The notes: generated by a model not told the origin, from the sequence alone. A stretch of DNA of 64,000 nucleotides from Acidobacteriota bacterium (GCA_040005235.1 JBDTZG010000002.1:128001-192000); one strand, 5' to 3'; counted from the stretch's first letter, positions 38,046 to 48,825 are shown. Numbers and translations are program-made.

Positions 38046-39440
38046 CTATTCGCTTGGGGTGATGGCCGAGATCTCAGCCGCGATCCGGCCGGCGTTCCTG
38101 ATGCAATCGGGAACCGAGACGCCGCCCAGGAAGTTGCCGGCCAGCCGCAGGCCAGGCAGCTCGCGCTCGATCTCCTCGGCCAAAGCGACGAACCGGCCGT
38201 GGCCCACTTCGTACTGCGGGATCGCCCGTGGCCAACGCCGAACGATCGCCAACTTGGGCCGACTGTATAATCCGAGCGCTCTCCCCAGGTCTTTCTGAAC
38301 CAGGCCGAGCAGGCGGTCGTCGCTCCAGATCGCGGGGTCGACGATCTCCGGGTCGGTCCGGCCCCCCAGGAACGCGGAGAGGGCGACGTGTCCCGCGGGA
38401 GCGCGGTCGGGGAAGATCGTCGAGGGGAACAGGCAGCCGAGCAGCCGCAGGCTCTCTCGCCGGGGGGCGAGGAAGCCGAAGCCGTCGAGCGGATGAACGA
38501 TCTGCTCGCGGGCCACCCCCAAGGCGACGACCGCGACAGGGGCGTAGGGGATTTCGGTGAATGTCCGGCTCTTGCCCTCGGTCGCTTCCTCCAGCAGCCG
38601 CGCCGCCACGTCGGCGGGGACCGCGAGCACTACCCGTCGGGCGCCAATCGGCCCATCGCTCGTCTCGACCCGGAAGCCCTCCCCGCTACGAACCACCGAC
38701 ATTGCGGAAACGTCCGTCCGCAAGTCGCCGATCTCCTGGGCCAAGCGCCGCGGCAGGGTCTCCAAACCGTCCCGGAAGGAGAACATCGCCCCGCCGGGCG
38801 ACGGGCCTTTCCGTTGGGCGAGAGCGCCGCGGATCAGGCTGCCGTGCTCAGTCTCGAGAGCGAAGATCTTCGGCACCGCCCAGCGCACCGCGAGCCGCTC
38901 GGGATCTCCGGCATAGATGCCCGAGACGAACGGCCCCACGGCATAATCGAGCAGCTCGTCCCCCAGCCGGCGGCGGACGAAAGCGGCGACCGTCTCGTCG
39001 GGCGCGGCCGCGATCTCAGCTGCCGAACGGCGGCGAATCCAGGGCTCGCGGAGCAGTCGGAGCTTCCCGCCGAGCGAAAACAGACGGGTGAGCAGGAGCC
39101 CCGGCGGACCGCCCGGGAGCGGTTCCAGGTGATCGCCCTTCCATAAATAGCGGCGTTTGGCGGCGGGGGAGGCGACGATTTTCTCGCGATTCGCCTCGTC
39201 ATCGAGGCCGGCGTCGCGAAGCAGCTTGGAGACCGCGGGGTGATTATCGAGCACCGTGTTCGGTCCCAGCTCGAAGCGGAAACCGGCCTCGGAATGGGTT
39301 TCGATCGCGCCGCCGACGCGCCCGCTCGCCTCGATCACCTCGACGGAAAGGCCGGCCCGTCTCAGGCGGAACGCCGCGGTCAGGCCGGAGATACCGGCGC
39401 CAATGACCAAGACGTCCAACGCTTCGGCCGATTCGGGCAT
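38046..39440 (-). CDS. hemG: Protoporphyrinogen/coproporphyrinogen oxidase (HemY/HemG family)
   Basis: IGAGISGL, FELGPNT, PFVSGIYAGDP, GFGFL, WPRAIPQY.VGH, GVSVPDCI. Confidence 0.92.
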   Translation of the reverse strand: MPESAEALDVLVIGAGISGLTAAFRLRRAGLSVEVIEASGRVGGAIETHSEAGFRFELGPNTVLDNHPAVSKLLRDAGLDDEANREKIVASPAAKRRYLWKGDHLEPLPGGPPGLLLTRLFSLGGKLRLLREPWIRRRSAAEIAAAPDETVAAFVRRRLGDELLDYAVGPFVSGIYAGDPERLAVRWAVPKIFALETEHGSLIRGALAQRKGPSPGGAMFSFRDGLETLPRRLAQEIGDLRTDVSAMSVVRSGEGFRVETSDGPIGARRVVLAVPADVAARLLEEATEGKSRTFTEIPYAPVAVVALGVAREQIVHPLDGFGFLAPRRESLRLLGCLFPSTIFPDRAPAGHVALSAFLGGRTDPEIVDPAIWSDDRLLGLVQKDLGRALGLYSRPKLAIVRRWPRAIPQYEVGHGRFVALAEEIERELPGLRLAGNFLGGVSVPDCIRNAGRIAAEISAITPSE

Positions 39441-39452
39441 CGCGGAGGCCGG

Positions 39453-42400
39453 TCAGGTCCCGGTTGGCGGTCCGTCGATCACCTGGCGGACGGCGCGAGC
39501 GAGAACTCCGGCGGAGAAAGGTTTCTGCAGGCAGAGCGGCCCCTCTCTTCGGGCCGACACGGTGCCGCTACGGTAGCCCGACATGTAGAGGACCCGCAAC
39601 TCCGGTCGGTCCGCCAAAAGGAGGGCCGCGATCTCGATTCCCTTAAGGCCGGGCATGGTCAGATCGGTCAGCAGCAGGTCGATCGGCTCGGTCGAGCCGG
39701 CCGCGATCTCGATGGCCTCCGCCCCCGAGGCCGCGACGAGCACGCGATAGCCGCGGCCTTCGAGGATTCGGCGCAGGACATCGCGGACCTTGTCTTCGTC
39801 TTCGACCAGCAGGATCGTCTCGTCGCCGGGTTCCAAGGGCTCTTCCGGAGCCACCGCCGGCTCGATCTCGGGATCGAGATGGGCGGGAAGATAGAGGCTG
39901 AACCGGGCGCCTTCTCCCGGGGCGCTGTCGACGAAAATGAAGCCGCCGCTCTGCTGGACGAAACCATAGCTGGTCGCCAGCCCCAAGCCGGTCCCCTCTC
40001 CGACCTCGCGCGTGCTGAAGAACGGCTCGAAGATTCTTCCTTGCGTTTCGGCATCCATGCCGATTCCGGTATCGGAAATGGCGACCAGCGCCCAGACGCC
40101 CGGCGGAACGTCGTGCTCGGCAGGCGCTTCGTGGGCGACGGTCACCGGTTCGGTCCGCAGGGTGAGCACGCCGCCTTCGGGCATGGCGTGGCGGGCGTTG
40201 ACCGCGAGGTTCACCAGAACGTGTTCCAAGCGGTTCGGATCGAGACGGACCGCGGGCAGATCGGGGTGGAGAGAGGTGCGGACCTCCACGTCGTTGCCCA
40301 GCAGCCGATGGACCATGCGCAGGAGGCCGGTGATCGATTCGTTCAGATCGACCACCCGCTGTTCCACCGCTTGGCGCCGGGCAAATGCCAAAAGCTGGCG
40401 GGTGAGCGCGGCGGCCTTTTCGCTCGCCTCGCGCAGCCCGACCAAGTTTTGTTGCAGGAAGTCGTCGTCCCGGTAGATCTCCGTCAGGATGTCGGTGTAG
40501 CCAAAGATCGCGAGCAGGCAGTTGTTGAAGTCGTGGGCGACGCCGGCCGAAAGCCGGCCGATCGCCTCCATCTTCTCCGCGAGCAGGAGCTGGCGTTGAA
40601 GGCGGTCCTTCTCCTCCTCGTCGCGCTTGCGCCGGTCGATGTCGCGAATCGCGACCACGGTAGCGGCTTCCCCCTGGAAAAGGATCCGTTTGCCCGCGAT
40701 TTCGAGATTCACCGCCGAGCCGTCCCGGCGGCGGCCGATCGTTTCGCGCGGCTCGCTCGACAGCGGAGTCTCGGTCAAATCGCCGAGCTCGATCAGCTCG
40801 GCGAGTGCCTGTCCCTGCAGCTCGAGGGCGGGAACGCCGAAGATCGCGGTCATCGCGCCGTTGACCGCCAAGACGGTTCCATCGCGAACGATCGCGATCC
40901 CTTCGAGGGTCGCTTCGAACAGCGCGCGGAAGCGCTGCTCGCTCTGCCGGATTTCCTGTTCGATCGCGCGCCGCTGCTCGATTTCGAGTTGAGCCCGCTC
41001 GTACAGGCGAATGTTTTCGAGCATCGGCGCGACCTGATTCGCGACCGTCGACAAAAGCTGAATGTCGCTTGCGGGATAGAAGTCGTCAGGATCGCGCCGA
41101 CCCATCAGCCAGACGCCGAGGGTCTGCTCCTTGACTTCGAGCGGAAGAGCCAACCGTACCCAGGAGCGGGTTCGCCCGTCCTGTGCCGACGAGGGCCGTA
41201 GATAACGTCGTCCGCGGGCGAGCCAGGCGCCGATCTCCAGCCGGTCGGGTGTCGGTTCGCCGCTTGGGAGGCCCTGAGAATAGAGCGCTTCCACCCCTTC
41301 TTCGGCGAACAGGTAGAGCGCCGATTGGCGAACCAACAAGGTGGGCAAGATCTCCTCGACCAGCGTCGTTCCGAGCACCGATCGATCGAACGCCCGCGGA
41401 ATCTTCTCGGCGACCAGGCCGACCACCTCTTCGTGATTATGCCGAATGCCGAAGACGTGGCGGTCGACCAGAGTCTGGAAACGGTCGTGCAGACTGGGAG
41501 CGAAAACCACTAAGACGAGTGCGGTCGCAAGAAGGGTGGCAAGGGTGCGCGGTTGGCCGGCGAGGCTGCGCGAACCGGCCATCAGCAGGAGACTGACGGC
41601 CAGGGTGAGGTACAGAGCCCAAAAGCTGTAGGCGCCGATCAGCCGATTGGCGCGGAACTCCATCGCTCCCAGGGTATGTTTGTAAATCGCATAGATATAG
41701 CTCGCCGACGGAATCGGTGCCGCGACCAAAGAGATCGTGATCGCCCAGGGTAGCGAGTGGCTGATGTCGGAGGCGGACATGCCCAGCCGGCTGCTGAAGA
41801 GGGGCAGCAGGGCGAAGAACCCGGCGATCGGCGCAAAACCCAGAGTCACGCCGAACAACATGATGCGGGTTGCCTGGCGCACCGCGGGCGGCCCGGGGAG
41901 AAAAAGGCGGGCGACGAGAAAAGCGAACGAAAGGACCAGGCCGCCGAGAAAGGAGAGCCGGAAGAAAACCGGAAAATCCTCGAGAAGGTGGGCGGTGTCG
42001 AGTCCGGCCAAGACCAGGGAAATGGCGTACAGCGGAGCGAGCACCCAGCCTCCCCGTCGACCGAACAGCGGGCTGGGCAGGAGGGTATGAAGGTGGGCGG
42101 CCAGAGGCAGGAAGAGCCAAACCACGAAATGGAACACGACCGAGGAGCCTGCGGTGTGGCGTGCCGAGGCGATTCCCGAGGAGAGCAAGATCGCGGTCAC
42201 ATAGGCGAACAAGACGAGCGCCAGCCATCGCTCGTCTCGAGGACGCAGAAAAAGGACGACAGCGGTACCGAAGAGCCAGAAAATCTGCGGCAGAAGGGAG
42301 AGAAGCGCGGACTCCTCGAGGAGCGCCTGGGGGCCGTCCTTCCAGTGGGAAGGGATCTTGAACGTCTCGCCGTGACGTAAGACCGTGAGCGTCGTGGCGC

Positions 42401-42683
42401 CATCGACCGAATACCCCTTGAAGATGTCGAGGCTGCGGTCCGCGAGAAAGCGCTCGCGGTCGATGCCGCCGATGGCAAGGATCTGATCCTCGGCGCGAAG
42501 ACAAACTTGAGTCTTCGGGCAGCTCGGTGCCTGGGTTACCGTCCAGTCGGCTCTCATCTCGAAGCCGAAGCCTGGGTAGTAGGCGATGTAGGAGTAATAG
42601 AGGGTCGGAGCGAGAACCAGCAGCGATATGCTGATCCACACCAGGTCGACGATTCGGCGGGTTTGCGCCGTTCTTGGGGTCAC
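39453..42683 (-). CDS. Hybrid sensor histidine kinase (TM-PDZ-like-multiTM-GAF-PAS-HisKA-HATPase-REC), ComP-like sensor region
   Basis: LRAEDQILAIGG...LTVLRHGE PDZ-like loop, about 9 TM helices, GVAHDFNN, NLAVNARHAM, GTGLGL, C-terminal REC (LLVEDE, LLLTDLTMP). Confidence 0.92.
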   Translation of the reverse strand: MTPRTAQTRRIVDLVWISISLLVLAPTLYYSYIAYYPGFGFEMRADWTVTQAPSCPKTQVCLRAEDQILAIGGIDRERFLADRSLDIFKGYSVDGATTLTVLRHGETFKIPSHWKDGPQALLEESALLSLLPQIFWLFGTAVVLFLRPRDERWLALVLFAYVTAILLSSGIASARHTAGSSVVFHFVVWLFLPLAAHLHTLLPSPLFGRRGGWVLAPLYAISLVLAGLDTAHLLEDFPVFFRLSFLGGLVLSFAFLVARLFLPGPPAVRQATRIMLFGVTLGFAPIAGFFALLPLFSSRLGMSASDISHSLPWAITISLVAAPIPSASYIYAIYKHTLGAMEFRANRLIGAYSFWALYLTLAVSLLLMAGSRSLAGQPRTLATLLATALVLVVFAPSLHDRFQTLVDRHVFGIRHNHEEVVGLVAEKIPRAFDRSVLGTTLVEEILPTLLVRQSALYLFAEEGVEALYSQGLPSGEPTPDRLEIGAWLARGRRYLRPSSAQDGRTRSWVRLALPLEVKEQTLGVWLMGRRDPDDFYPASDIQLLSTVANQVAPMLENIRLYERAQLEIEQRRAIEQEIRQSEQRFRALFEATLEGIAIVRDGTVLAVNGAMTAIFGVPALELQGQALAELIELGDLTETPLSSEPRETIGRRRDGSAVNLEIAGKRILFQGEAATVVAIRDIDRRKRDEEEKDRLQRQLLLAEKMEAIGRLSAGVAHDFNNCLLAIFGYTDILTEIYRDDDFLQQNLVGLREASEKAAALTRQLLAFARRQAVEQRVVDLNESITGLLRMVHRLLGNDVEVRTSLHPDLPAVRLDPNRLEHVLVNLAVNARHAMPEGGVLTLRTEPVTVAHEAPAEHDVPPGVWALVAISDTGIGMDAETQGRIFEPFFSTREVGEGTGLGLATSYGFVQQSGGFIFVDSAPGEGARFSLYLPAHLDPEIEPAVAPEEPLEPGDETILLVEDEDKVRDVLRRILEGRGYRVLVAASGAEAIEIAAGSTEPIDLLLTDLTMPGLKGIEIAALLLADRPELRVLYMSGYRSGTVSARREGPLCLQKPFSAGVLARAVRQVIDGPPTGT

Positions 42684-43669
42684 CTCGGCTCCGGGATTCC
42701 CTGGAGCCTGTCGCCGCTACCGAGCGAAAGCAGGTGCTCGAGCGGGCGCACCAGCCGGTTGACCATCCGATCGAGAGGCGCGTGCGAGATCACTTCCAGG
42801 GCTTGTACCTGTCGACGTGACTCGGTGGAAAAATGGTCCATCTGGAGCGCACAGTAGCTCACGGCTCCCGATTTGAAAAGAAGTTTTTGCGCGGAGGCTA
42901 GCGATTCCGGGTCTCCCACCCCTTGGGCGAGGCGGGCGAACTCGTTCCGCTCAGGGTACGTGGCGGTCATGGCGTAGAGCAGGGCCAGGTTGTTGCGTGG
43001 CCGGCTCCAGTCGGCGCTCGCCGGCGTGTTGAGCGAATCGGCGAGATCGTCGCTCACTTGAATGAAACGGCCGAGACTTCGTCCGAGGCGCTCGAATCCG
43101 GCGATCGTGGAGCTCGAGGCTCCGGCCAGCAGACCGCCCAGAGCGAAGGCGGCGGCGAACAGCGGCGGGGACTTTGCCTCGACTCTCCGCCAGTAATCTT
43201 CCTCCGTTGTCGATTCGACGGTGTCCAATTCTTGGCCATGAGCCGTCGCGAGAAACGCGCAGGAAAGCTGAGCTTGAAGCGCCGAGTATCGAGGCGATTC
43301 GATCGCGGTATTCTCGATCAGTCGATGGGCCGCGGCTTGGAAAGCCGAGGCCAGATTCGCGGCCCGGCCGACTCCTAGAAAGTGAAAGTCGCCCTTCGGG
43401 TCGTTGTCGAGCAGGTCGTCGATCAGATGGATGGCGGTCAAGGCGCAGAGAATCGCCGCCGCGCCAGGCAACGCCTGCTCTTCCGTACCGCCCGAAGCCA
43501 GGCATGCGGCAACGGGGTATTCCCATACCGAGATTTCGTCGCAATGTTTGGCCCGACTGATGAGATCGAGCATCTCGGGCCAGCGGTTGACCTCGGGCAG
43601 GTGAGCGACCAGCGCTTTCAAACGTTCAAAACGCTGGTTTATAGAGCGACCGCGAACTTCGACTTGCAT
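42680..43669 (-). CDS. Class I isoprenyl-transferase fold protein, ComQ-like peptide prenyltransferase candidate
   Basis: HLIDDLLDND first Asp-rich motif, GQELD, IQVSDDLAD second motif; lacks the RRG of chain-elongating synthases; ATGA-coupled to the kinase. Confidence 0.8.
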   Translation of the reverse strand: MQVEVRGRSINQRFERLKALVAHLPEVNRWPEMLDLISRAKHCDEISVWEYPVAACLASGGTEEQALPGAAAILCALTAIHLIDDLLDNDPKGDFHFLGVGRAANLASAFQAAAHRLIENTAIESPRYSALQAQLSCAFLATAHGQELDTVESTTEEDYWRRVEAKSPPLFAAAFALGGLLAGASSSTIAGFERLGRSLGRFIQVSDDLADSLNTPASADWSRPRNNLALLYAMTATYPERNEFARLAQGVGDPESLASAQKLLFKSGAVSYCALQMDHFSTESRRQVQALEVISHAPLDRMVNRLVRPLEHLLSLGSGDRLQGIPEPR

Positions 43670-43756
43670 CTAGGTAAATTTCTCGAACCTCTAAAAACCT
43701 TGCGCGAATCGGGTAGGCGAAACGACGGGTTCGTCGCTTCGCCTACTCGGGATATT

Positions 43757-43942
43757 TTAGGAAAGCTCGGAAGCAGCCTGGGCCGACGAAGTCCATTCGG
43801 GCCAGCCGTCCGGATCGGGTTTACCTGCCGCTCCGAACACTTGCGATGGATCTTCAACCTTAGAGATGGCGCGAAGCCTGATCAAAAGGGGGTCGGCATC
43901 GCACACGCCATGCAGAGATCGGTTAAAACTTTCGATGGACAT
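43757..43942 (-). CDS. Small Trp-containing peptide, candidate ComX-like precursor
   Basis: Strong GGAGGGAG RBS; 61 aa MSIESFNRSL...GKPDPDGWPEWTSSAQAASELS; directly upstream of the prenyltransferase. Confidence 0.6.
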   Translation of the reverse strand: MSIESFNRSLHGVCDADPLLIRLRAISKVEDPSQVFGAAGKPDPDGWPEWTSSAQAASELS

Positions 43943-44129
43943 CAATTACTCCCTCCGACTACAAGTTAGTTGTAAAATCTTGATCGCGGCCCACGCAGAT
44001 CCCCCGAATCGAGCGAGTCTCGATGTAAGAAAGATCTTTGTGAGACGGAAAAACCGCGACCAAGCGACCGTATACCGGTGCTGGAGTGCGACGATCTCCC
44101 TAAAGAGGGACACGTTTGTTCAAAAAAAT

Positions 44130-45326
44130 TCAGGAGGCGGGTGGAATGTGCAAACTCTCGTCGGCCGCGAGGTCTCGGCCCGTGCGGGGGTATGAAAAAA
44201 AGTGACCTTGGCCGAAATCGATTCCCAGTCTGCGAATCTCTTCGGCTTCTGCCGCGGTCTCTACCGCTTCCATCACCGTTTTGGCGCCGGTTCGCGCGGC
44301 CATCTCGGCGGTCGAACGGACCAAGGCTTGTTTAAATGGATCTTGTTCGACTCCGCGACAGAAGGCGGACGAAATCTTAAGGAACTCCGGGCGGAGATCT
44401 AGAAACAAATTTAAATTTGATGATCCTTCGCCAAAATCATCCAAAGCGATTCTTAATCCAAGATCGCGCAACTTCGCGAGGGTCGCGGCGAAGGCGCGCG
44501 GATTCAAGATCGTGTGTTGCTCGGTGAGCTCCAGAATCACCCGCTGGTGATCGACCTCCGCCGTGCGCAGCGCTTCGACCAGCCGGGGGGTGAACTCGGG
44601 GTGGGTGAGAGATCGCGGCTGGACGTTCAAAAATGCGGTCAAGCGTCCCGGCAGGTGGCGAAATTCGGCGAGCGCGGCACGGATACAAAGTAAATCGACC
44701 TCGAACGCCAACTCTTTCTTTGCCGCATAAGCGAACAATAGAGCCGGCATGCCGAGCAGAGAACCCGCCGGGCCGCGGGCGAGACCTTCGACGCCGAAAA
44801 CCTCGAACGGCGGGCCGCCGTCGAACAGCGGAACCACGGGCTGAAGCAGAGCGTGCAGCGGACCCGCCGACAGGAAGCTTTCGAGCAGCGGAACTTTCTC
44901 GACCGTCGGCGCCTGCGGCGGACTCTTCGGCGTTTCCGGATCAGCTGAAGCCGCCGCTTGCCGCGCCTGCTCGGCGAGCAGCAGGCGGCGCAGCTCGCCC
45001 AAACCGCCCGGTTTATCGAGGACGGCCGCGACCCCCATCAGATGGCAGATCGAACGGACGCTCTCGTCCAAGAAACCCGAGAGGACGTAAAGCGCGGTGT
45101 CCGGGAAGTGCGTGGCGACGAAGCGGATCAGCCGTACCCCTTCGAGCCCGCCGAGCGGCGACACCGAAAGATCGGTAACCACGGCGTCGAAGGGATACTG
45201 GCTGAGCAACGCCTCCGCCGCCTCGATTTCCAGGCAGGTGGTCAGGGCAACGTCGGGCGCTCGTAACGCGAGCGCGAGCATGTCGACCACCATCGACTCG
45301 TCATCGAGCACCAAGACTCTAAACAT
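44130..45326 (-). CDS. Response regulator with EAL domain (REC-EAL)
   Basis: VLVLDDE...VVTDL REC; EGLARGP, FLNV, LELTE, ALDDFGEG, LKIS, EAVET, GQGHFFSYP. Confidence 0.88.
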   Translation of the reverse strand: MFRVLVLDDESMVVDMLALALRAPDVALTTCLEIEAAEALLSQYPFDAVVTDLSVSPLGGLEGVRLIRFVATHFPDTALYVLSGFLDESVRSICHLMGVAAVLDKPGGLGELRRLLLAEQARQAAASADPETPKSPPQAPTVEKVPLLESFLSAGPLHALLQPVVPLFDGGPPFEVFGVEGLARGPAGSLLGMPALLFAYAAKKELAFEVDLLCIRAALAEFRHLPGRLTAFLNVQPRSLTHPEFTPRLVEALRTAEVDHQRVILELTEQHTILNPRAFAATLAKLRDLGLRIALDDFGEGSSNLNLFLDLRPEFLKISSAFCRGVEQDPFKQALVRSTAEMAARTGAKTVMEAVETAAEAEEIRRLGIDFGQGHFFSYPRTGRDLAADESLHIPPAS

Positions 45327-45582
45327 TGGGTGAGCAGTATAAGCGTCGACAGCTTGGGAGCCAAGAAACGAGGACGGGGAACCGCCTCGTTGTCCTCTCA
45401 CGGTGGCATCCGTGGGTCCGAAGCGCCGGGCCAGATTATCGCGATCGCGCCCGACGATCGCGAGTGAAGCTTGATTCTAAGGACCTTACCGCCCTCGCGC
45501 GTCTTCTGGCACCTGAGTTGCTCTGATGAGGAATCGAACATCGATCGCCCCCCTATTTCGGGGCGCTGGAGGATTTCGCACC

Positions 45583-46287
45583 ATGTCGAAGCACATCACC
45601 CTCGCCCTCGCCCTGCTCGGCTCCGCGCTGGTCGCGGCCAACGCCCAAGCTCAAGTCCCGAGCGGGCCGATCGAACAATCCGTGCGCCTTCGTCTCGGCA
45701 GTTTCCGGCCCGAAGGAAACTCGCAGTACTGGCACGACAAGGCGGTTCAATTCAACGGCAAAGCCTCCGATCTGGAGGATGCGGTCGGCGGCATCGATTA
45801 CCAGCTGGCGCTCAACCCCCATTTCGCGCTGCTGTTTTCGGGCTCCTCGTACCAGGGGAAGACCGACCCGTCCTATCGGAACTTTGTCGATTCACGGGGC
45901 GGCGAGGTCTCGCACACCGCGACGCTCGACATCGCCTCGCTCACCGCCGGCCTGGTGTTTCATCTGGCCGGGCCGAACGCTCCGATCCGTCCGTACCTGG
46001 GCGGCGGAGGGGGCGTCTACGCCTACCGATTGGAAGAGGACGGACGGTTCATAGACTTTACGCCGCCGCCTCCGACCGTCTTCCGCGCCGATTCGGTCGC
46101 CGAGGGCAATTCCTTCGGCTATTACTGGCTGGCCGGTTTTGAAGTGCCGGTCGGTCGCAGCTGGGGCTTTTTCGCCGAGGGGCGCTGGCACCAAGTCGAC
46201 GACGAGCTGGGCGACGACTTCGCCGGCTTCGGCAAGATCGACTTGTCCGGCCGTGACGTCTCGGCGGGCATCTCCTACCGGTTCTGA
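45583..46287 (+). CDS. Outer-membrane beta-barrel protein (8-stranded OmpA/OmpW-like)
   Basis: Signal peptide, RPYLGGGGG, terminal GISYRF. Confidence 0.82.
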   Translation: MSKHITLALALLGSALVAANAQAQVPSGPIEQSVRLRLGSFRPEGNSQYWHDKAVQFNGKASDLEDAVGGIDYQLALNPHFALLFSGSSYQGKTDPSYRNFVDSRGGEVSHTATLDIASLTAGLVFHLAGPNAPIRPYLGGGGGVYAYRLEEDGRFIDFTPPPPTVFRADSVAEGNSFGYYWLAGFEVPVGRSWGFFAEGRWHQVDDELGDDFAGFGKIDLSGRDVSAGISYRF

Positions 46288-46350
46288 TCGTTCCCAAGGT
46301 CCGCCCGCGTGGCCCCGCGCGGGCGGACCTGTTACGCTTCCCGCCGTTCG

Positions 46351-48825
46351 ATGCCCTCCACTCTTCGCACCCCCACGCCGGAAGCCGGTACGCCCAGTCG
46401 TTGGCGTAAGAAGCGCCTGCTATGGATCGGATTGGGGTTGTTGGTGGTCGTGCTGCTCGCGTTCCTGCCGTTCTGGCAGATCGTCGGCCGGTTCGGGGAC
46501 ATGATTTTCCGCCAGCCCTCGCGGCTCTACGCGCGGATCGATCGGGTGCAAAAAGGCGGTCTGTGCAGCATGGATCGGGTGGTCGCCGAGTTGCGCGCCT
46601 CGGGCTACCGTTCGGTCGGCGGAGAGGGCCCGCTCCTCTCGGGGCGCTATCGCCGAGCGGGGGATCGGCTCGAAGCTCACCTGCGCTATTTCCCGACCCC
46701 CGAAGGCGAGCGCGGCGGAGCGCGGTTCGATCTGCGCACCGCCCAGTCGCGCGTGGTCTCGATCACCCGCGACGGCCGGCCGGTCGACGAGATGATCCTC
46801 GAACCGCCGTTGGTCGCGTCGTACTACGGACCGAAGCTCGAAGAGCGCCGGCCGCTCCGCCTGGAGCAGGTGCCCCAGGATCTGGTGAACGCGGTGCTCG
46901 CGGCGGAGGACGACAGTTTCTTCGAGCACTCGGGGATCTCGGTGCGCGGCGTCGCCCGGGCGGTTTTGGTCAACCTTCGCGGTCACGGCATCCGCCAAGG
47001 CGGCAGCACGCTTACTCAGCAGCTGGTCAAGAACATCTTTCTCACCCAGAAGCGTTCGCTGGGGAGAAAGGCGCAAGAGGCGATCCTCGCGGTGCTGATG
47101 GAGGTGCGGTACGACAAGAAGGAGATCCTGGAGTCGTACCTGAACGAGATCTACCTCGGATCGAGCGGCGGCGTCTCGGTGCTCGGCGTAGGAGCCGCGG
47201 CGCGCGCTTTTTTCGGCAAGGACGCGCGGGATCTCGATCTCGCCGAGGCGGCGACTCTCGCCGGGATGATTCAGTCTCCCGCCCCCTATTCGCCGGTCGC
47301 CCATCCGGAGCGGTGCAAACAGCGCCGCGACTGGGTTTTGGCTCGGCTGGAAGAGCTGGGCCTCGCCGAGCCGGACCGCGTGGCGCGGGCCCTGGCGACG
47401 CCGGTCCTCGCCGAGCCGGAGGCCCCGACCCGCCGCCGCGCGCCCTACTTCAGCGACGCGATGACCCACGAGGTGGAACGCCGTTTCCGCATCGCCGATC
47501 TTGCCGATGCCGGCTTTGCCCTCTATTCGAGCCTCGATCTCACCGATCAGCGCGCGGCGCAGGCGGCGGTCGAGAGCGGCCTCGCCGACCTTGAAAAGAA
47601 GGGACCGCAGGGCGACAGCAAGGGTCCGCTGGAGTCCGCCCTGGTCTCGGTCGATCCGGCGACCGGCGGCCTGCTCGCCTACGTCGGGGGACGAAGCTAT
47701 ACCCGCAGCCAGTTCGATCGGGCGAGCCAGGCGAAGCGCCAGCCCGGCAGCGCGTTCAAGCCAATCGTCTACGCCCAACTGTTCGAATCGGGAAAGGGAA
47801 CGCCGGCGTCGTTCGTCGAGGATTCGCCGCTCACGATCGACATGGCCGGCAAGCCCTGGAGTCCGAAAAACGACGACGGTAGCTTTCACGGCTGGGTCAC
47901 CGTCCGCCGGGCGCTGGAGCACAGCTACAACCCGGCGACGACGCGCATCGCCCTCCAGGTCGGCATGGACCATGTGGTGACGCTTGCCCACAAGATGGGG
48001 GTCGAAGCGGAGATGGACCCGTTCCCCGCGGTGGCGCTCGGCGCCACGTCCGTTTCGCCGATCGAGCTGTTGCGGGTCTATGCGACGCTCGCCGCGGGCG
48101 GCGTCCGTCCGGAGGTCCATGGCATCGACGCGGTGTTCGACCGCTTCGGCAAGCCGGTCGAGGGCGAGGTCCTGCCGGCGCCCGAGCGGGTCCTTTCGCC
48201 GCAGTCGGCGTATCTGGTGACCACTCTGCTTCAAGGCGTGATCGATCGAGGAACCGGCTTTGGGATTCGGGCCCAGGGAATCGAAGGGGCGCTCGCCGGG
48301 AAAACCGGCACCACGAACGACCGGCGCGACGCCTGGTTCGGCGGCTATTCGGTCAACCGCGCGACGGTCGTCTGGGTCGGGTTCGACGACAACTCTCCCA
48401 CCCGCCTGTCGGGCGCCCGCGGCGCCCTGCCGATTTGGGCGCGATTCACCTCGCAGGTCCGCTCTCCGGCGGGATTCCCGCCGTTCAAGCAGCCTCCCGG
48501 CCTGCGGACGGCGATGATCGATCCGACCACCGGCGCGCTCGCCACCGAGTATTGTCCGGCGGTGATCACCGAGGTCTTCCCCGAAGGGAAGGTCCCTTCC
48601 CAGCTGTGCGATCGCCACACCGGATTTGACTCCACGAGCGGCTACGACGAGGACGGCCAGCCGCTCGACGGCGAGGATGCGGGAGGAGTCCAGCCGCAGC
48701 GGCATCCCTTCCGCCGCTGGTTGAACCAGATCTTTGGCAACCGCGATCCCAACGCGCCGCCGCCGCGAAATTCAGGCGACGGTTCGTCGCCTCCCCCGGT
48801 GCCTCCTCCGGATCCCCATCGCTAG
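46351..48825 (+). CDS. mrcB: Penicillin-binding protein 1B (UB2H, transglycosylase, transpeptidase)
   Basis: AEDDSFFEHSG, GGSTLTQQLVKN, YLNEIYLG, SAFK, SYN, KTGT. Confidence 0.9.
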   Translation: MPSTLRTPTPEAGTPSRWRKKRLLWIGLGLLVVVLLAFLPFWQIVGRFGDMIFRQPSRLYARIDRVQKGGLCSMDRVVAELRASGYRSVGGEGPLLSGRYRRAGDRLEAHLRYFPTPEGERGGARFDLRTAQSRVVSITRDGRPVDEMILEPPLVASYYGPKLEERRPLRLEQVPQDLVNAVLAAEDDSFFEHSGISVRGVARAVLVNLRGHGIRQGGSTLTQQLVKNIFLTQKRSLGRKAQEAILAVLMEVRYDKKEILESYLNEIYLGSSGGVSVLGVGAAARAFFGKDARDLDLAEAATLAGMIQSPAPYSPVAHPERCKQRRDWVLARLEELGLAEPDRVARALATPVLAEPEAPTRRRAPYFSDAMTHEVERRFRIADLADAGFALYSSLDLTDQRAAQAAVESGLADLEKKGPQGDSKGPLESALVSVDPATGGLLAYVGGRSYTRSQFDRASQAKRQPGSAFKPIVYAQLFESGKGTPASFVEDSPLTIDMAGKPWSPKNDDGSFHGWVTVRRALEHSYNPATTRIALQVGMDHVVTLAHKMGVEAEMDPFPAVALGATSVSPIELLRVYATLAAGGVRPEVHGIDAVFDRFGKPVEGEVLPAPERVLSPQSAYLVTTLLQGVIDRGTGFGIRAQGIEGALAGKTGTTNDRRDAWFGGYSVNRATVVWVGFDDNSPTRLSGARGALPIWARFTSQVRSPAGFPPFKQPPGLRTAMIDPTTGALATEYCPAVITEVFPEGKVPSQLCDRHTGFDSTSGYDEDGQPLDGEDAGGVQPQRHPFRRWLNQIFGNRDPNAPPPRNSGDGSSPPPVPPPDPHR

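Follow-up and report, generated by a model that had tools for sequence, protein, structure and literature searches.

Pheromones made of modified peptides are treated as a trait of Gram-positive bacteria. In ComQXPA systems the operon consists of four adjacent genes on the same strand, for an isoprenyl transferase, a pre-peptide, a histidine kinase and a regulator made of a receiver (REC) and a GerE domain (PMC4008528); the abstract of the same study, a census of 2014, reports no comQXPA-like locus outside the Firmicutes. The first ComQ-like enzyme from elsewhere comes only with a 2026 preprint (10.64898/2026.08.29.745113): StheQ of Sphaerobacter thermophilus, a member of the Chloroflexota, farnesylates in vitro the 69-aa peptide StheX, the pair is proposed to be related to quorum sensing, and neither a receptor nor a polymorphism is reported in the accessible part of that text. 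Here we analyse positions 39453-45326 of a 64,000-nucleotide stretch from an Acidobacteriota bacterium (GCA_040005235.1 JBDTZG010000002.1:128001-192000), hereafter the window, where a small peptide gene lies with the genes of a synthase-fold enzyme, a polytopic histidine kinase and a REC-EAL response regulator. We think it rather likely that this cassette is a ComQXP-like peptide pheromone system, whose peptide is probably prenylated on tryptophan (Trp) and whose output would here be cyclic di-GMP (c-di-GMP).

The four genes are all on the minus strand, in the order REC-EAL, 61-aa peptide, enzyme, hybrid kinase. An earlier reading of this DNA, made from the letters alone (below, the sequence-only reading), had described such a same-strand cassette, and its coordinates, its X-Q-P order and the REC, EAL, GAF, PAS and HisKA domains that it named are all recovered, as follows:

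44130..45326, minus strand: REC-EAL response regulator, putative c-di-GMP phosphodiesterase (Pfam REC and EAL; reading frame open to a GTG at 45401)
43943..44129, minus strand: intergenic region 5' of the peptide gene, which holds the Shine-Dalgarno sequence GGAGGGAG; the hypervariable block begins here
43757..43942, minus strand: precursor peptide gene, 61 aa (reading frame and Shine-Dalgarno, family alignment, polymorphism ratio)
42680..43669, minus strand: enzyme of trans-isoprenyl-diphosphate-synthase fold, 329 aa, putative peptide Trp prenyltransferase (PF00348)
39453..42683, minus strand: hybrid histidine kinase, 1076 aa (Pfam and hydropathy)
41394..42683, minus strand: kinase sensor domain, aa 1-430, putative pheromone receptor (hydropathy, AlphaFold; no Pfam family)
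39453..41393, minus strand: cytoplasmic part of the kinase with GAF, PAS, HisKA, HATPase_c and a C-terminal REC (Pfam)
41400..44200, no strand assigned: hypervariable (pherotype-like) block, with the peptide gene and its upstream region, the enzyme gene and kinase codons 1-430 (sliding-window identity, trees)

The strong ribosome-binding site proposed before the peptide gene is thus found upstream of its ATG. The proposed coupling of enzyme and kinase is also real, since the GTG start of the kinase overlaps the TGA stop of the enzyme, the shared letters being GTGA and not ATGA as then stated. The host belongs to the Thermoanaerobaculia, a class of Acidobacteriota; the homologues that bear a name in their source, at 77-80% identity, are called Thermoanaerobaculia bacterium. 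Two sets of loci served for comparison: about 13 kb around the enzyme homologue of each of 20 related genomes, and 47 loci from an enzyme-profile scan of one genome per species, at least six of which coincide with places in the first set. Because the genes of the wider flanks stay beside the cassette within the genus only (7/42 and 5/42 loci), we take the genes for REC-EAL, peptide, enzyme and kinase as the unit that is conserved here.

The likeness to ComQXPA of Bacillus subtilis covers several levels. In both systems an enzyme of the isoprenyl diphosphate synthase (IPPS) superfamily lies beside a precursor of about 50-70 aa that lacks a signal peptide, has a conserved N-terminus and keeps a conserved Trp in a variable C-terminus; a polytopic histidine kinase adjoins, with overlapping start and stop; and enzyme, peptide and N-terminal half of the kinase are polymorphic, with an incongruent block tree, whereas the C-terminus of the kinase and the regulator are conserved (for Bacillus, PMC4008528). 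On the other hand the order is regulator-X-Q-P here and Q-X-P-A in Bacillus, the precursor does not match PF05952 (ComX) and its two Trp (WxxW), both invariant, lie here 11-14 residues before its end, and a REC-EAL enzyme takes as output the place of ComA, a REC-GerE factor. ComP is of the HisKA_3 type, unlike the present kinase, a HisKA hybrid with GAF and PAS domains and with a different, unclassified sensor domain that carries a possibly PDZ-like loop. The window thus departs from the ComQXPA operon as defined, and shares with it, as a sequence pattern, the polymorphism of Q, X and N-terminal P.

StheQ and StheX also form, outside the Firmicutes, a pair of an IPPS-fold enzyme and a Trp peptide, so that the likeness to ComQXP claimed by the sequence-only reading stands but not its uniqueness outside the Firmicutes (preprint 10.64898/2026.08.29.745113). 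As described in this preprint, StheQ differs from the present enzyme by a DExxD first motif and a pseudo-second motif with N215 and D216, and StheX by its place downstream of StheQ and by the location of its two Trp, at -2 and -3. Sphaerobacter is not among the 47 loci found with our enzyme-family profile. In the literature searched, outside which remain the ChrPC study and the supplements of the papers, we met with ComQ, PalQ, StheQ, Ord1 and ChrPC but with no description of this cassette family, which the database records searched leave without annotation too; within that literature the logic of the system appears known, whereas novelty seems to lie in the family of the precursor, the branch of the enzyme, the domain of the receptor, the phyla of the hosts and the output by c-di-GMP.

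The precursor peptide and its enzyme

The small open reading frame (ORF) at 43757-43945 (62/61 aa), whose 61-aa translation from its ATG is MSIESFNRSLHGVCDADPLLIRLRAISKVEDPSQVFGAAGKPDPDGWPEWTSSAQAASELS, is by all comparisons a real gene. We do not attribute it to chance because a six-frame scan with the peptide profile finds a match beside the enzyme in 44/47 loci and nowhere else in those loci, because the annotated frame is the only one open in all seven same-genus orthologues, and because the ratio of nonsynonymous to synonymous polymorphism (pN/pS) among these is 0.25 for the leader, the value for core plus tail being 0.54. Three loci give no match, namely L063, L078 (with a weak candidate) and L081, the last being no true homologue. 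Among the 20 relatives a Trp peptide adjoins the enzyme in every locus (19 by pattern, L027 by profile), as expected from the sequence-only reading; the pairing spans, in the 47 loci, the Chloroflexota, the Myxococcota and the Bacteroidota.

The layout of the precursor is that of a leader, a core and a tail. In an alignment of 27 peptides—L026:4956-5096 and L028:1124-1930 being left out as false pattern matches—the leader MSIxxFhxxL ... LRxL ... EDP is conserved, the core is variable around an invariant WxxW (GWPEW in the window), and the tail, of 11 aa here, is variable. Four residues never vary (F6, L23, W47 and W50) and three others (M1, I3 and R24) hardly do, while the region from the leader to WxxW and the tail vary freely; the ORF and its Trp are therefore conserved, and the two Trp lie, as had been read, at positions 47 and 50, 11-14 residues before the C-terminus. 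A profile of 51 peptides compared with 1.84 billion representative proteins returned 488 matches at E≤0.001 (102 at E≤1e-10), nearly all of 50-75 aa and aligned from residue 1; WxxW is present in 147 of the 150 best representatives, and a median of 13 residues follows it in the library hits. Ten members of the family were looked up and are called, where the source gives a name, 'hypothetical protein'. The peptide itself has no family in Pfam (E≤0.01) or NCBIfam, and PF05952, searched against the whole genome at E≤10, matches twice, below threshold, at other places but not at the peptide gene.

The Pfam match of the enzyme is PF00348 (polyprenyl_synt), with an E-value of only 1.6e-13. Its two aspartate-rich motifs are those noticed in the sequence-only reading, the first (FARM) at D84 D85 xx D88 (DDLLD) and the second (SARM) at Q204 xx D207 D208 xx D211 (QVSDDLAD); both are invariant in 60 family members, and DDxxD with QxxDDxxD occurs in 70/70 homologues of the fetched loci. 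Chain-elongating synthases bind isopentenyl diphosphate (IPP) by the motifs GKRxRP, RRG and GK..D..GK.T, and each of the three canonical paralogues found elsewhere in this genome has all of them. Compared with these paralogues, the cassette enzyme has none—the lack of RRG had already been seen—and GK[RK]xR is found in 0/72 of its homologues. After the first motif, the window has DNDPKG, a position where D-x-D-P-(K/R/H)-G is present in the seven distant homologues compared and in most of 12 further ones, L060 and L066 excepted. None of the NCBIfam synthase cut-offs is reached, all 12 models among the matches listed being far below; the best of them, the encapsulin cargo polyprenyl transferase, is ruled out with 65.3 bits for a cut-off of 450. 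From the features of a chain-elongating synthase (IPR000092/PF00348), the enzyme has thus both DDxxD motifs, and neither the IPP-binding motifs nor a score at an NCBIfam cut-off. Since the IPP-binding motifs are absent and the Asp-rich ones kept, it would bind an allylic diphosphate, whose extension with IPP is unlikely.

The fold is that of the synthases: the AlphaFold model (mean predicted local distance difference test, pLDDT, 92.4) matches geranylgeranyl diphosphate (GGPP) and polyprenyl synthases with template-modelling (TM) scores of 0.74-0.76, and canonical synthases are also the best matches of the family profile in the PDB (E 1.3e-16). One could then consider an ordinary isoprenoid enzyme, chain-length-specific or terpene-forming, that makes a lipid, the small protein being a regulatory or structural subunit and the kinase a mere neighbour. 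This we hold to be very improbable: canonical Asp-rich motifs, best matches in fold and sequence among GGPP, nonaprenyl and octaprenyl synthases, and the name 'polyprenyl synthetase family protein' given by the sources are what such an enzyme would display, but it would also be expected to reach a synthase cut-off and to keep the IPP-binding motifs common to the three housekeeping paralogues, with which the genome is already provided. Moreover, the invariant residues of its small partner include two Trp in a variable core, modelled at the active-site motifs (see below), and the synthesis of a lipid leaves unexplained why enzyme and receptor should be hypervariable together.

The known enzymes of the synthase fold that use another acceptor, i.e. 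ComQ, StheQ, PalQ, the P domain of ChrPC and Ord1, all prenylate Trp (PMC13290415, section 2.4; preprint 10.64898/2026.08.29.745113). With respect to ComQ, the hallmark of the family is a pseudo-second motif NDxxx, with Asn for the first Asp (preprint 10.64898/2026.08.29.745113, introduction). The present enzyme has the IPPS fold and the DDxxD first motif of this family (IPR033965), but its second motif is a canonical DDxxD (70/70), with D207 and D208 invariant; it is for this reason not a ComQ-family member by motif, in a comparison made with the published descriptions of ComQ and StheQ. The unit of Paenibacillus alvei, PalQ/PalX/PalP, also associates a histidine kinase, a precursor and a Trp prenyltransferase (PMC10853753, section 2.1). 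PalX, however, is of NHLP type with a C-terminal Trp, unlike the present precursor, without NHLP, Pfam or NCBIfam match; and PalQ, which is terpene-synthase-like, is described as remote from the trans-isoprenyl diphosphate synthase (trans-IDS) family, in a network cluster of its own (PMC10853753), whereas the present enzyme belongs to PF00348. Ord1 (PDB 9V4G/9V4J), a prenyltransferase of indole with an all-alpha-helical structure, likewise has an IPPS fold that takes indole instead of IPP; it acts on free tryptophan (PMC13290415, section 2.4), where the present enzyme would act on a peptide, and is no closer to our family than canonical synthases are (E 5.4e-11 versus 1.3e-16).

A model of the enzyme with the peptide was then compared with controls. 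The complex scores 0.79 and the best of three controls 0.00, the mark being reached by 58/80 solved complexes and by 2/110 mismatched pairs, a calibration that holds only roughly for models built, as here, from custom alignments; the runs agree on at least 53% of the contacts, with a partner pLDDT of at least 62. Residues 1-7 and 19-30 of the leader lie on the enzyme helix 264-279, itself highly conserved, and residues 43-53 of the core, W47 and W50 included, contact enzyme residues 77-81, 92-94, 203 and 207 (the first Asp of the SARM), beside both Asp-rich motifs. The model thus supports binding, leader and core docking together on the enzyme. The position of the core at 203 and 207 fits the recognition of indole by Gln and SARM-Asp described for trans-IDS-like Trp prenyltransferases (PMC13290415, section 2.4); for PalQ and its precursor, too, the complex was known at first from an AlphaFold prediction, which placed the Trp inside the active site (PMC10853753, section 2.1).

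In the mechanism that we propose, the C-terminal helices of the enzyme would hold the 61-aa precursor by its conserved leader; with an allylic diphosphate as donor, the enzyme would then attach a C10-C20 prenyl group to the Trp residues of WxxW, either one or both. These two steps rest on comparative and model evidence; the following ones—trimming and export, sensing, output by REC-EAL—we infer.

The sensor domain and a hypervariable block

The kinase is, as had been read, a GAF-PAS-HisKA-REC hybrid: Pfam finds GAF, PAS, HisKA, HATPase_c and REC, and leaves the first 430 aa without family. Hydropathy and AlphaFold (pLDDT 85.6) give for this sensor domain one transmembrane helix, a beta-rich loop of about 93 aa, predicted to be extracytoplasmic (aa 34-126, window 42306-42584), then about nine helices. 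The N-terminal helix and the polytopic bundle of the sequence-only reading are therefore maintained, the further helices being about nine rather than about eight. The PDZ-like nature which that reading gave to the loop is far less clear. Foldseek finds local matches (E 0.25-0.34) to the PDZ domains of DegP, DegQ, RseP and an M61 peptidase, and in the look-alike clusters of the Atlas 10-65% of the members carry PDZ families; Pfam detects no PDZ on the loop, its sole match there being a sub-threshold N-terminal domain of Peptidase_S41 (E 0.012), so that the loop can only tentatively be called PDZ-like. For the whole sensor-domain model, Foldseek returned no match at E≤0.001 among solved structures; a likeness to G-protein-coupled receptors (E 0.04-0.3, TM score about 0.3) was taken as that of generic helix bundles.

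Whatever its fold, this domain is a faithful companion of the enzyme. A polytopic kinase beside the enzyme homologues had been anticipated, and the sensor domain adjoins the enzyme in 19/20 relatives' loci, the single miss being a contig end, and in 34/47 loci, of Acidobacteriota and Chloroflexota. From phylum to phylum it stays with peptide and enzyme, whereas the type of transmitter changes: hybrid HisKA, plain HisKA with three GAF, or HisKA_3 with a REC-GerE regulator.

The variation of these three partners among close relatives differs from that of their surroundings. The genome closest by the flanks, G003, is 99% identical to the window for REC-EAL, 96% for the C-terminus of the kinase, 96% for the neighbouring penicillin-binding protein (PBP1A) and 94% for the neighbouring outer-membrane protein, versus 69% for the sensor domain, 75% for the enzyme and 52% for the peptide. 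With G006, more distant by the flanks, the relation is reversed: 90%, 80%, 85% and 76% for the same four flanking regions, and 86%, 88% and 77% for sensor domain, enzyme and peptide. At the nucleotide level most flanking windows are 0.90-0.98 identical to G003, a value that goes down to 0.84-0.88 near the edges of the block and to 0.64-0.79 within about 44200-41400, with sharp boundaries; in 43943..44129 the closest relative is 0.69-0.78 identical, down from about 0.94. In maximum-likelihood trees, the window joins G006 for enzyme plus sensor domain (support 100/100) and G003 for REC-EAL plus kinase C-terminus (100/97), G006 being in this second tree, rooted with three rows from other genera, the first branch of the genus. 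Inside the sensor domain the most variable segment is the loop, with 46-63% identity versus 60-93% for the other segments (L014-L018).

By these comparisons, peptide, enzyme and sensor domain make up a hypervariable block whose tree is incongruent with that of its flanks, a pattern that a co-evolving ligand, its maturase and its receptor would produce. In Bacillus comQXP the same pattern of polymorphism underlies the pherotypes (PMC4008528, introduction). We propose that the lipopeptide would be sensed by the N-terminal domain of the kinase, i.e. by the periplasmic loop and the membrane bundle, and that this domain may diversify together with peptide and enzyme, giving strain-specific 'pherotypes'.

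The putative REC-EAL output and the weighing of the pheromone reading

The regulator adjoining the cassette carries both domains expected from a c-di-GMP response regulator of this architecture: on 44130-45401 Pfam finds EAL (E 4.5e-43) and Response_reg (E 9.4e-9). Its start is probably the ATG at 45326, because distant homologues align only from residue 25-26 of the longer ORF. The protein aligns over its full length with RocR (3sy8), and matches the NCBIfam PvrR model over residues 27-404, below the cut-off; it thus shares the two-domain architecture of RocR/PvrR-type regulators, but reaches no equivalog cut-off and, unlike them, is tied to a peptide-enzyme-sensor cassette. In BlrP1 the residues of the EAL motifs have catalytic and metal-binding roles; the present domain agrees with it at the positions EGLAR, N, ELTE, DDFG, K, E and Q(G), the Asp two after the Lys being here a Ser. 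By eye, the REC domain has its DD, D, S and K residues. We therefore consider REC-EAL a putative c-di-GMP phosphodiesterase, and the claim of a phosphodiesterase-type regulator in place of ComA agrees with its REC and EAL domains and with its BlrP1-like motif residues. It adjoins the cassette in 18/20 relatives' loci, in either orientation, and in 23/47 loci (L035-L055, L061 and L064), which are all of the Thermoanaerobaculia type. In our proposal the activity of the kinase would set the phosphorylation of REC-EAL, hence the breakdown of c-di-GMP; in other lineages the same trio of peptide, enzyme and sensor may be coupled to other outputs, such as the HisKA_3 kinase and REC-GerE regulator of Anaerolineae.

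Several observations weigh against this reading of the cassette. The link to c-di-GMP is concerned first: REC-EAL is not found next to the cassette in two of the 20 relatives (L027 and L030), nor in the other 24 of the 47 loci, including further Acidobacteriota records. The kinase, moreover, is a hybrid with a REC of its own, the cassette encodes no Hpt domain, and Hpt matches occur on other contigs only; because of this, a direct or relayed transfer of phosphate to REC-EAL is a step that we infer from synteny; Trp prenylation and secretion are putative as well. For prenylation, since the second Asp-rich motif is canonical where ComQ has NDxxx, homology to ComQ proper is unproven and the transfer to Trp is argued by analogy; the rough calibration of the complex score also enters here. 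Acidobacteriota being diderm, the signal would have to cross the outer membrane twice. Furthermore, 3-21 residues follow WxxW in the Thermoanaerobaculia lineage, and C-terminal extensions are reported to abolish the activity of PalQ (PMC13290415, section 2.4).

The 61-aa peptide has no signal peptide and the cassette no exporter or protease, which also counts against a secreted signal. The small protein might then never leave the cell and modulate the kinase or REC-EAL from inside, the enzyme lipidating it for anchoring in the membrane beside the kinase; the long tail that follows WxxW in this lineage would go in the same direction. ComX, however, likewise lacks a signal peptide, and its own route out of the cell is described as not known (PMC4008528, ComQ section). 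Besides, the hypervariability and the sharp-edged incongruence of the trees fit recognition between cells better than a housekeeping switch, and the segment of the receptor that varies most is predicted to be extracytoplasmic, so that we give this intracellular role hardly any credence. In the pheromone reading, the modified peptide would be trimmed and would leave the cell.

Another difficulty is that the sensor-domain kinase is not found in 13/47 loci. Two of these are contig ends and one is L081; the remaining ones include Plesiocystis, Entotheonella, Kordia and the Ardenticatenaceae/Leptofilum group. This leads to consider a cluster for a natural product of the RiPP type (a peptide made by ribosomes and modified after its translation), where the modified Trp peptide would be an antibiotic, a surfactant or a membrane-active lipopeptide, and the kinase would serve for regulation or self-protection, possibly with a nisin-like autoinduction. 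The pair is indeed met without sensor kinase and with an ABC exporter (Entotheonella), a TPR protein (Kordia) or an OmpR-type regulator and an extracytoplasmic function (ECF) sigma factor (Ardenticatenaceae); some precursors have multiple Trp, with three WxxW in Plesiocystis and WGWxWDW in Ardenticatenaceae/Leptofilum; and tandem copies of precursor or enzyme, usual in RiPP clusters, are common (two peptides in 7/20 loci). The conserved unit of the window lineage is at the opposite devoid of exporter, immunity or protease gene, its partners being a sensor kinase and a second-messenger enzyme, and its sensor domain co-varies with peptide and enzyme, as expected of a ligand and its receptor and not of a toxin and its regulator. 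We thus judge this explanation unlikely, though clearly ahead of the two others; if the regulator senses the product, it merges with the pheromone one.

Altogether, conservation of the peptide, loss of motifs in the enzyme, the complex model and the hypervariable block make lipopeptide signalling of the ComQXP kind, as first advanced from the letters, the best explanation, and one that we consider fairly probable. Whether the cassette stands for a large family of prenyl-Trp pheromones that the papers and records searched do not describe—present in Acidobacteriota and Chloroflexota, probably also in Myxococcota, Bacteroidota and Entotheonella, with a new WxxW precursor, a new enzyme branch and a new receptor, with pherotypes, and feeding c-di-GMP in Thermoanaerobaculia—seems to us evenly balanced. 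If true, Thermoanaerobaculia would pass from sessile to motile life, or back, under a control that is specific to the strain and discriminates kin, and peptide quorum sensing would be tied directly to c-di-GMP. The cassette would be a complete candidate circuit, with signal, maturase, receptor and output, in a phylum dominant in soils but poorly cultured; several other phyla have relatives of it, and its sequences bear a signature of diversification into pherotypes. The few Trp-prenylating enzymes that serve for the lipidation of peptides would become more numerous as well.

Variant loci and neighbouring genes

The 47 loci come, among others, from metagenome-assembled genomes (MAGs) of Thermoanaerobaculia and 'Holophagales', from Plesiocystis pacifica SIR-1, Anaerolineae, Ca. 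Amarolinea, Ardenticatenaceae, Ca. Leptofilum, Ca. Entotheonella TSY1 and Kordia, and from one MAG labelled Promethearchaeota. Outside Thermoanaerobaculia the Trp motif is mostly followed by 0-3 residues before the chain ends, in Plesiocystis by up to 8. The ORFs at the enzyme position in Kordia, Entotheonella and Ardenticatenaceae/Leptofilum are of 317-321 aa, without a fused cyclase.

An uncultured Anaerolineae (L069:5756-12530) has a peptide, two tandem enzymes, a kinase with the same sensor, three GAF and HisKA_3, and a REC-GerE regulator, which appears as a near-complete ComQXPA-like layout in the Chloroflexota. In Plesiocystis pacifica SIR-1 the precursor beside the enzyme homologue (L057:6715-6984) has three WxxW, namely GWEPW, GWQQW and GWQPW; it is followed by a 720-aa ORF without Pfam family, and no sensor-domain kinase was detected at this locus. 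The precursors of Ardenticatenaceae and Ca. Leptofilum (L072, L074-L076, L079 and L080) end with WGWYWDW or WGWNWDW instead of WxxW, that is with four alternating Trp at the very C-terminus, and have no sensor-domain kinase nearby; at L072, the one locus scanned in this group, the OmpR-type regulator and the ECF sigma factor are nearby. In Ca. Entotheonella TSY1 (L065:392-3730) two tandem precursors with near-identical leaders, ending with AWAEW and TWDPW, precede the enzyme, then comes the convergent ABC exporter. The Kordia pair has its TPR protein beside it.

Within the 20 relatives, two of the seven loci with two peptides also have two enzymes. Tandem peptide-enzyme pairs precede a single kinase in L021 and L025 (genomes G010 and G020); in L020, L024, L026, L028 and L029 a second, divergent peptide lies between enzyme and kinase, or before the first peptide. 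Such loci might deliver several signals to one receptor, or decoys. In genus g3 of the same family, a strong enzyme homologue is missing from G009 and G019, alone among 24 family-level relatives; G009 being 100% complete in three contigs, a genuine loss of the cassette in this genus is possible. A 5.7-kb contig (L068) of the MAG labelled Promethearchaeota archaeon has a bacterial-type peptide, enzyme and sensor kinase, the kinase on the opposite strand; binning contamination or gene transfer could account for their presence there.

Around the cassette of the window, a scan for promoters and terminators was uninformative: in the gap 43943..44129 no consensus of either kind rises above chance level, three terminator-like sites were found for 2.7 expected, and one promoter-like site, upstream of REC-EAL, for 0.4 expected. 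The neighbouring genes, assigned by eye only, are the following:

45526-46287, plus strand: 253-aa outer-membrane beta-barrel-like protein
46309-48825, plus strand: class A penicillin-binding protein
38046-39440, minus strand: protoporphyrinogen-oxidase-like flavoprotein

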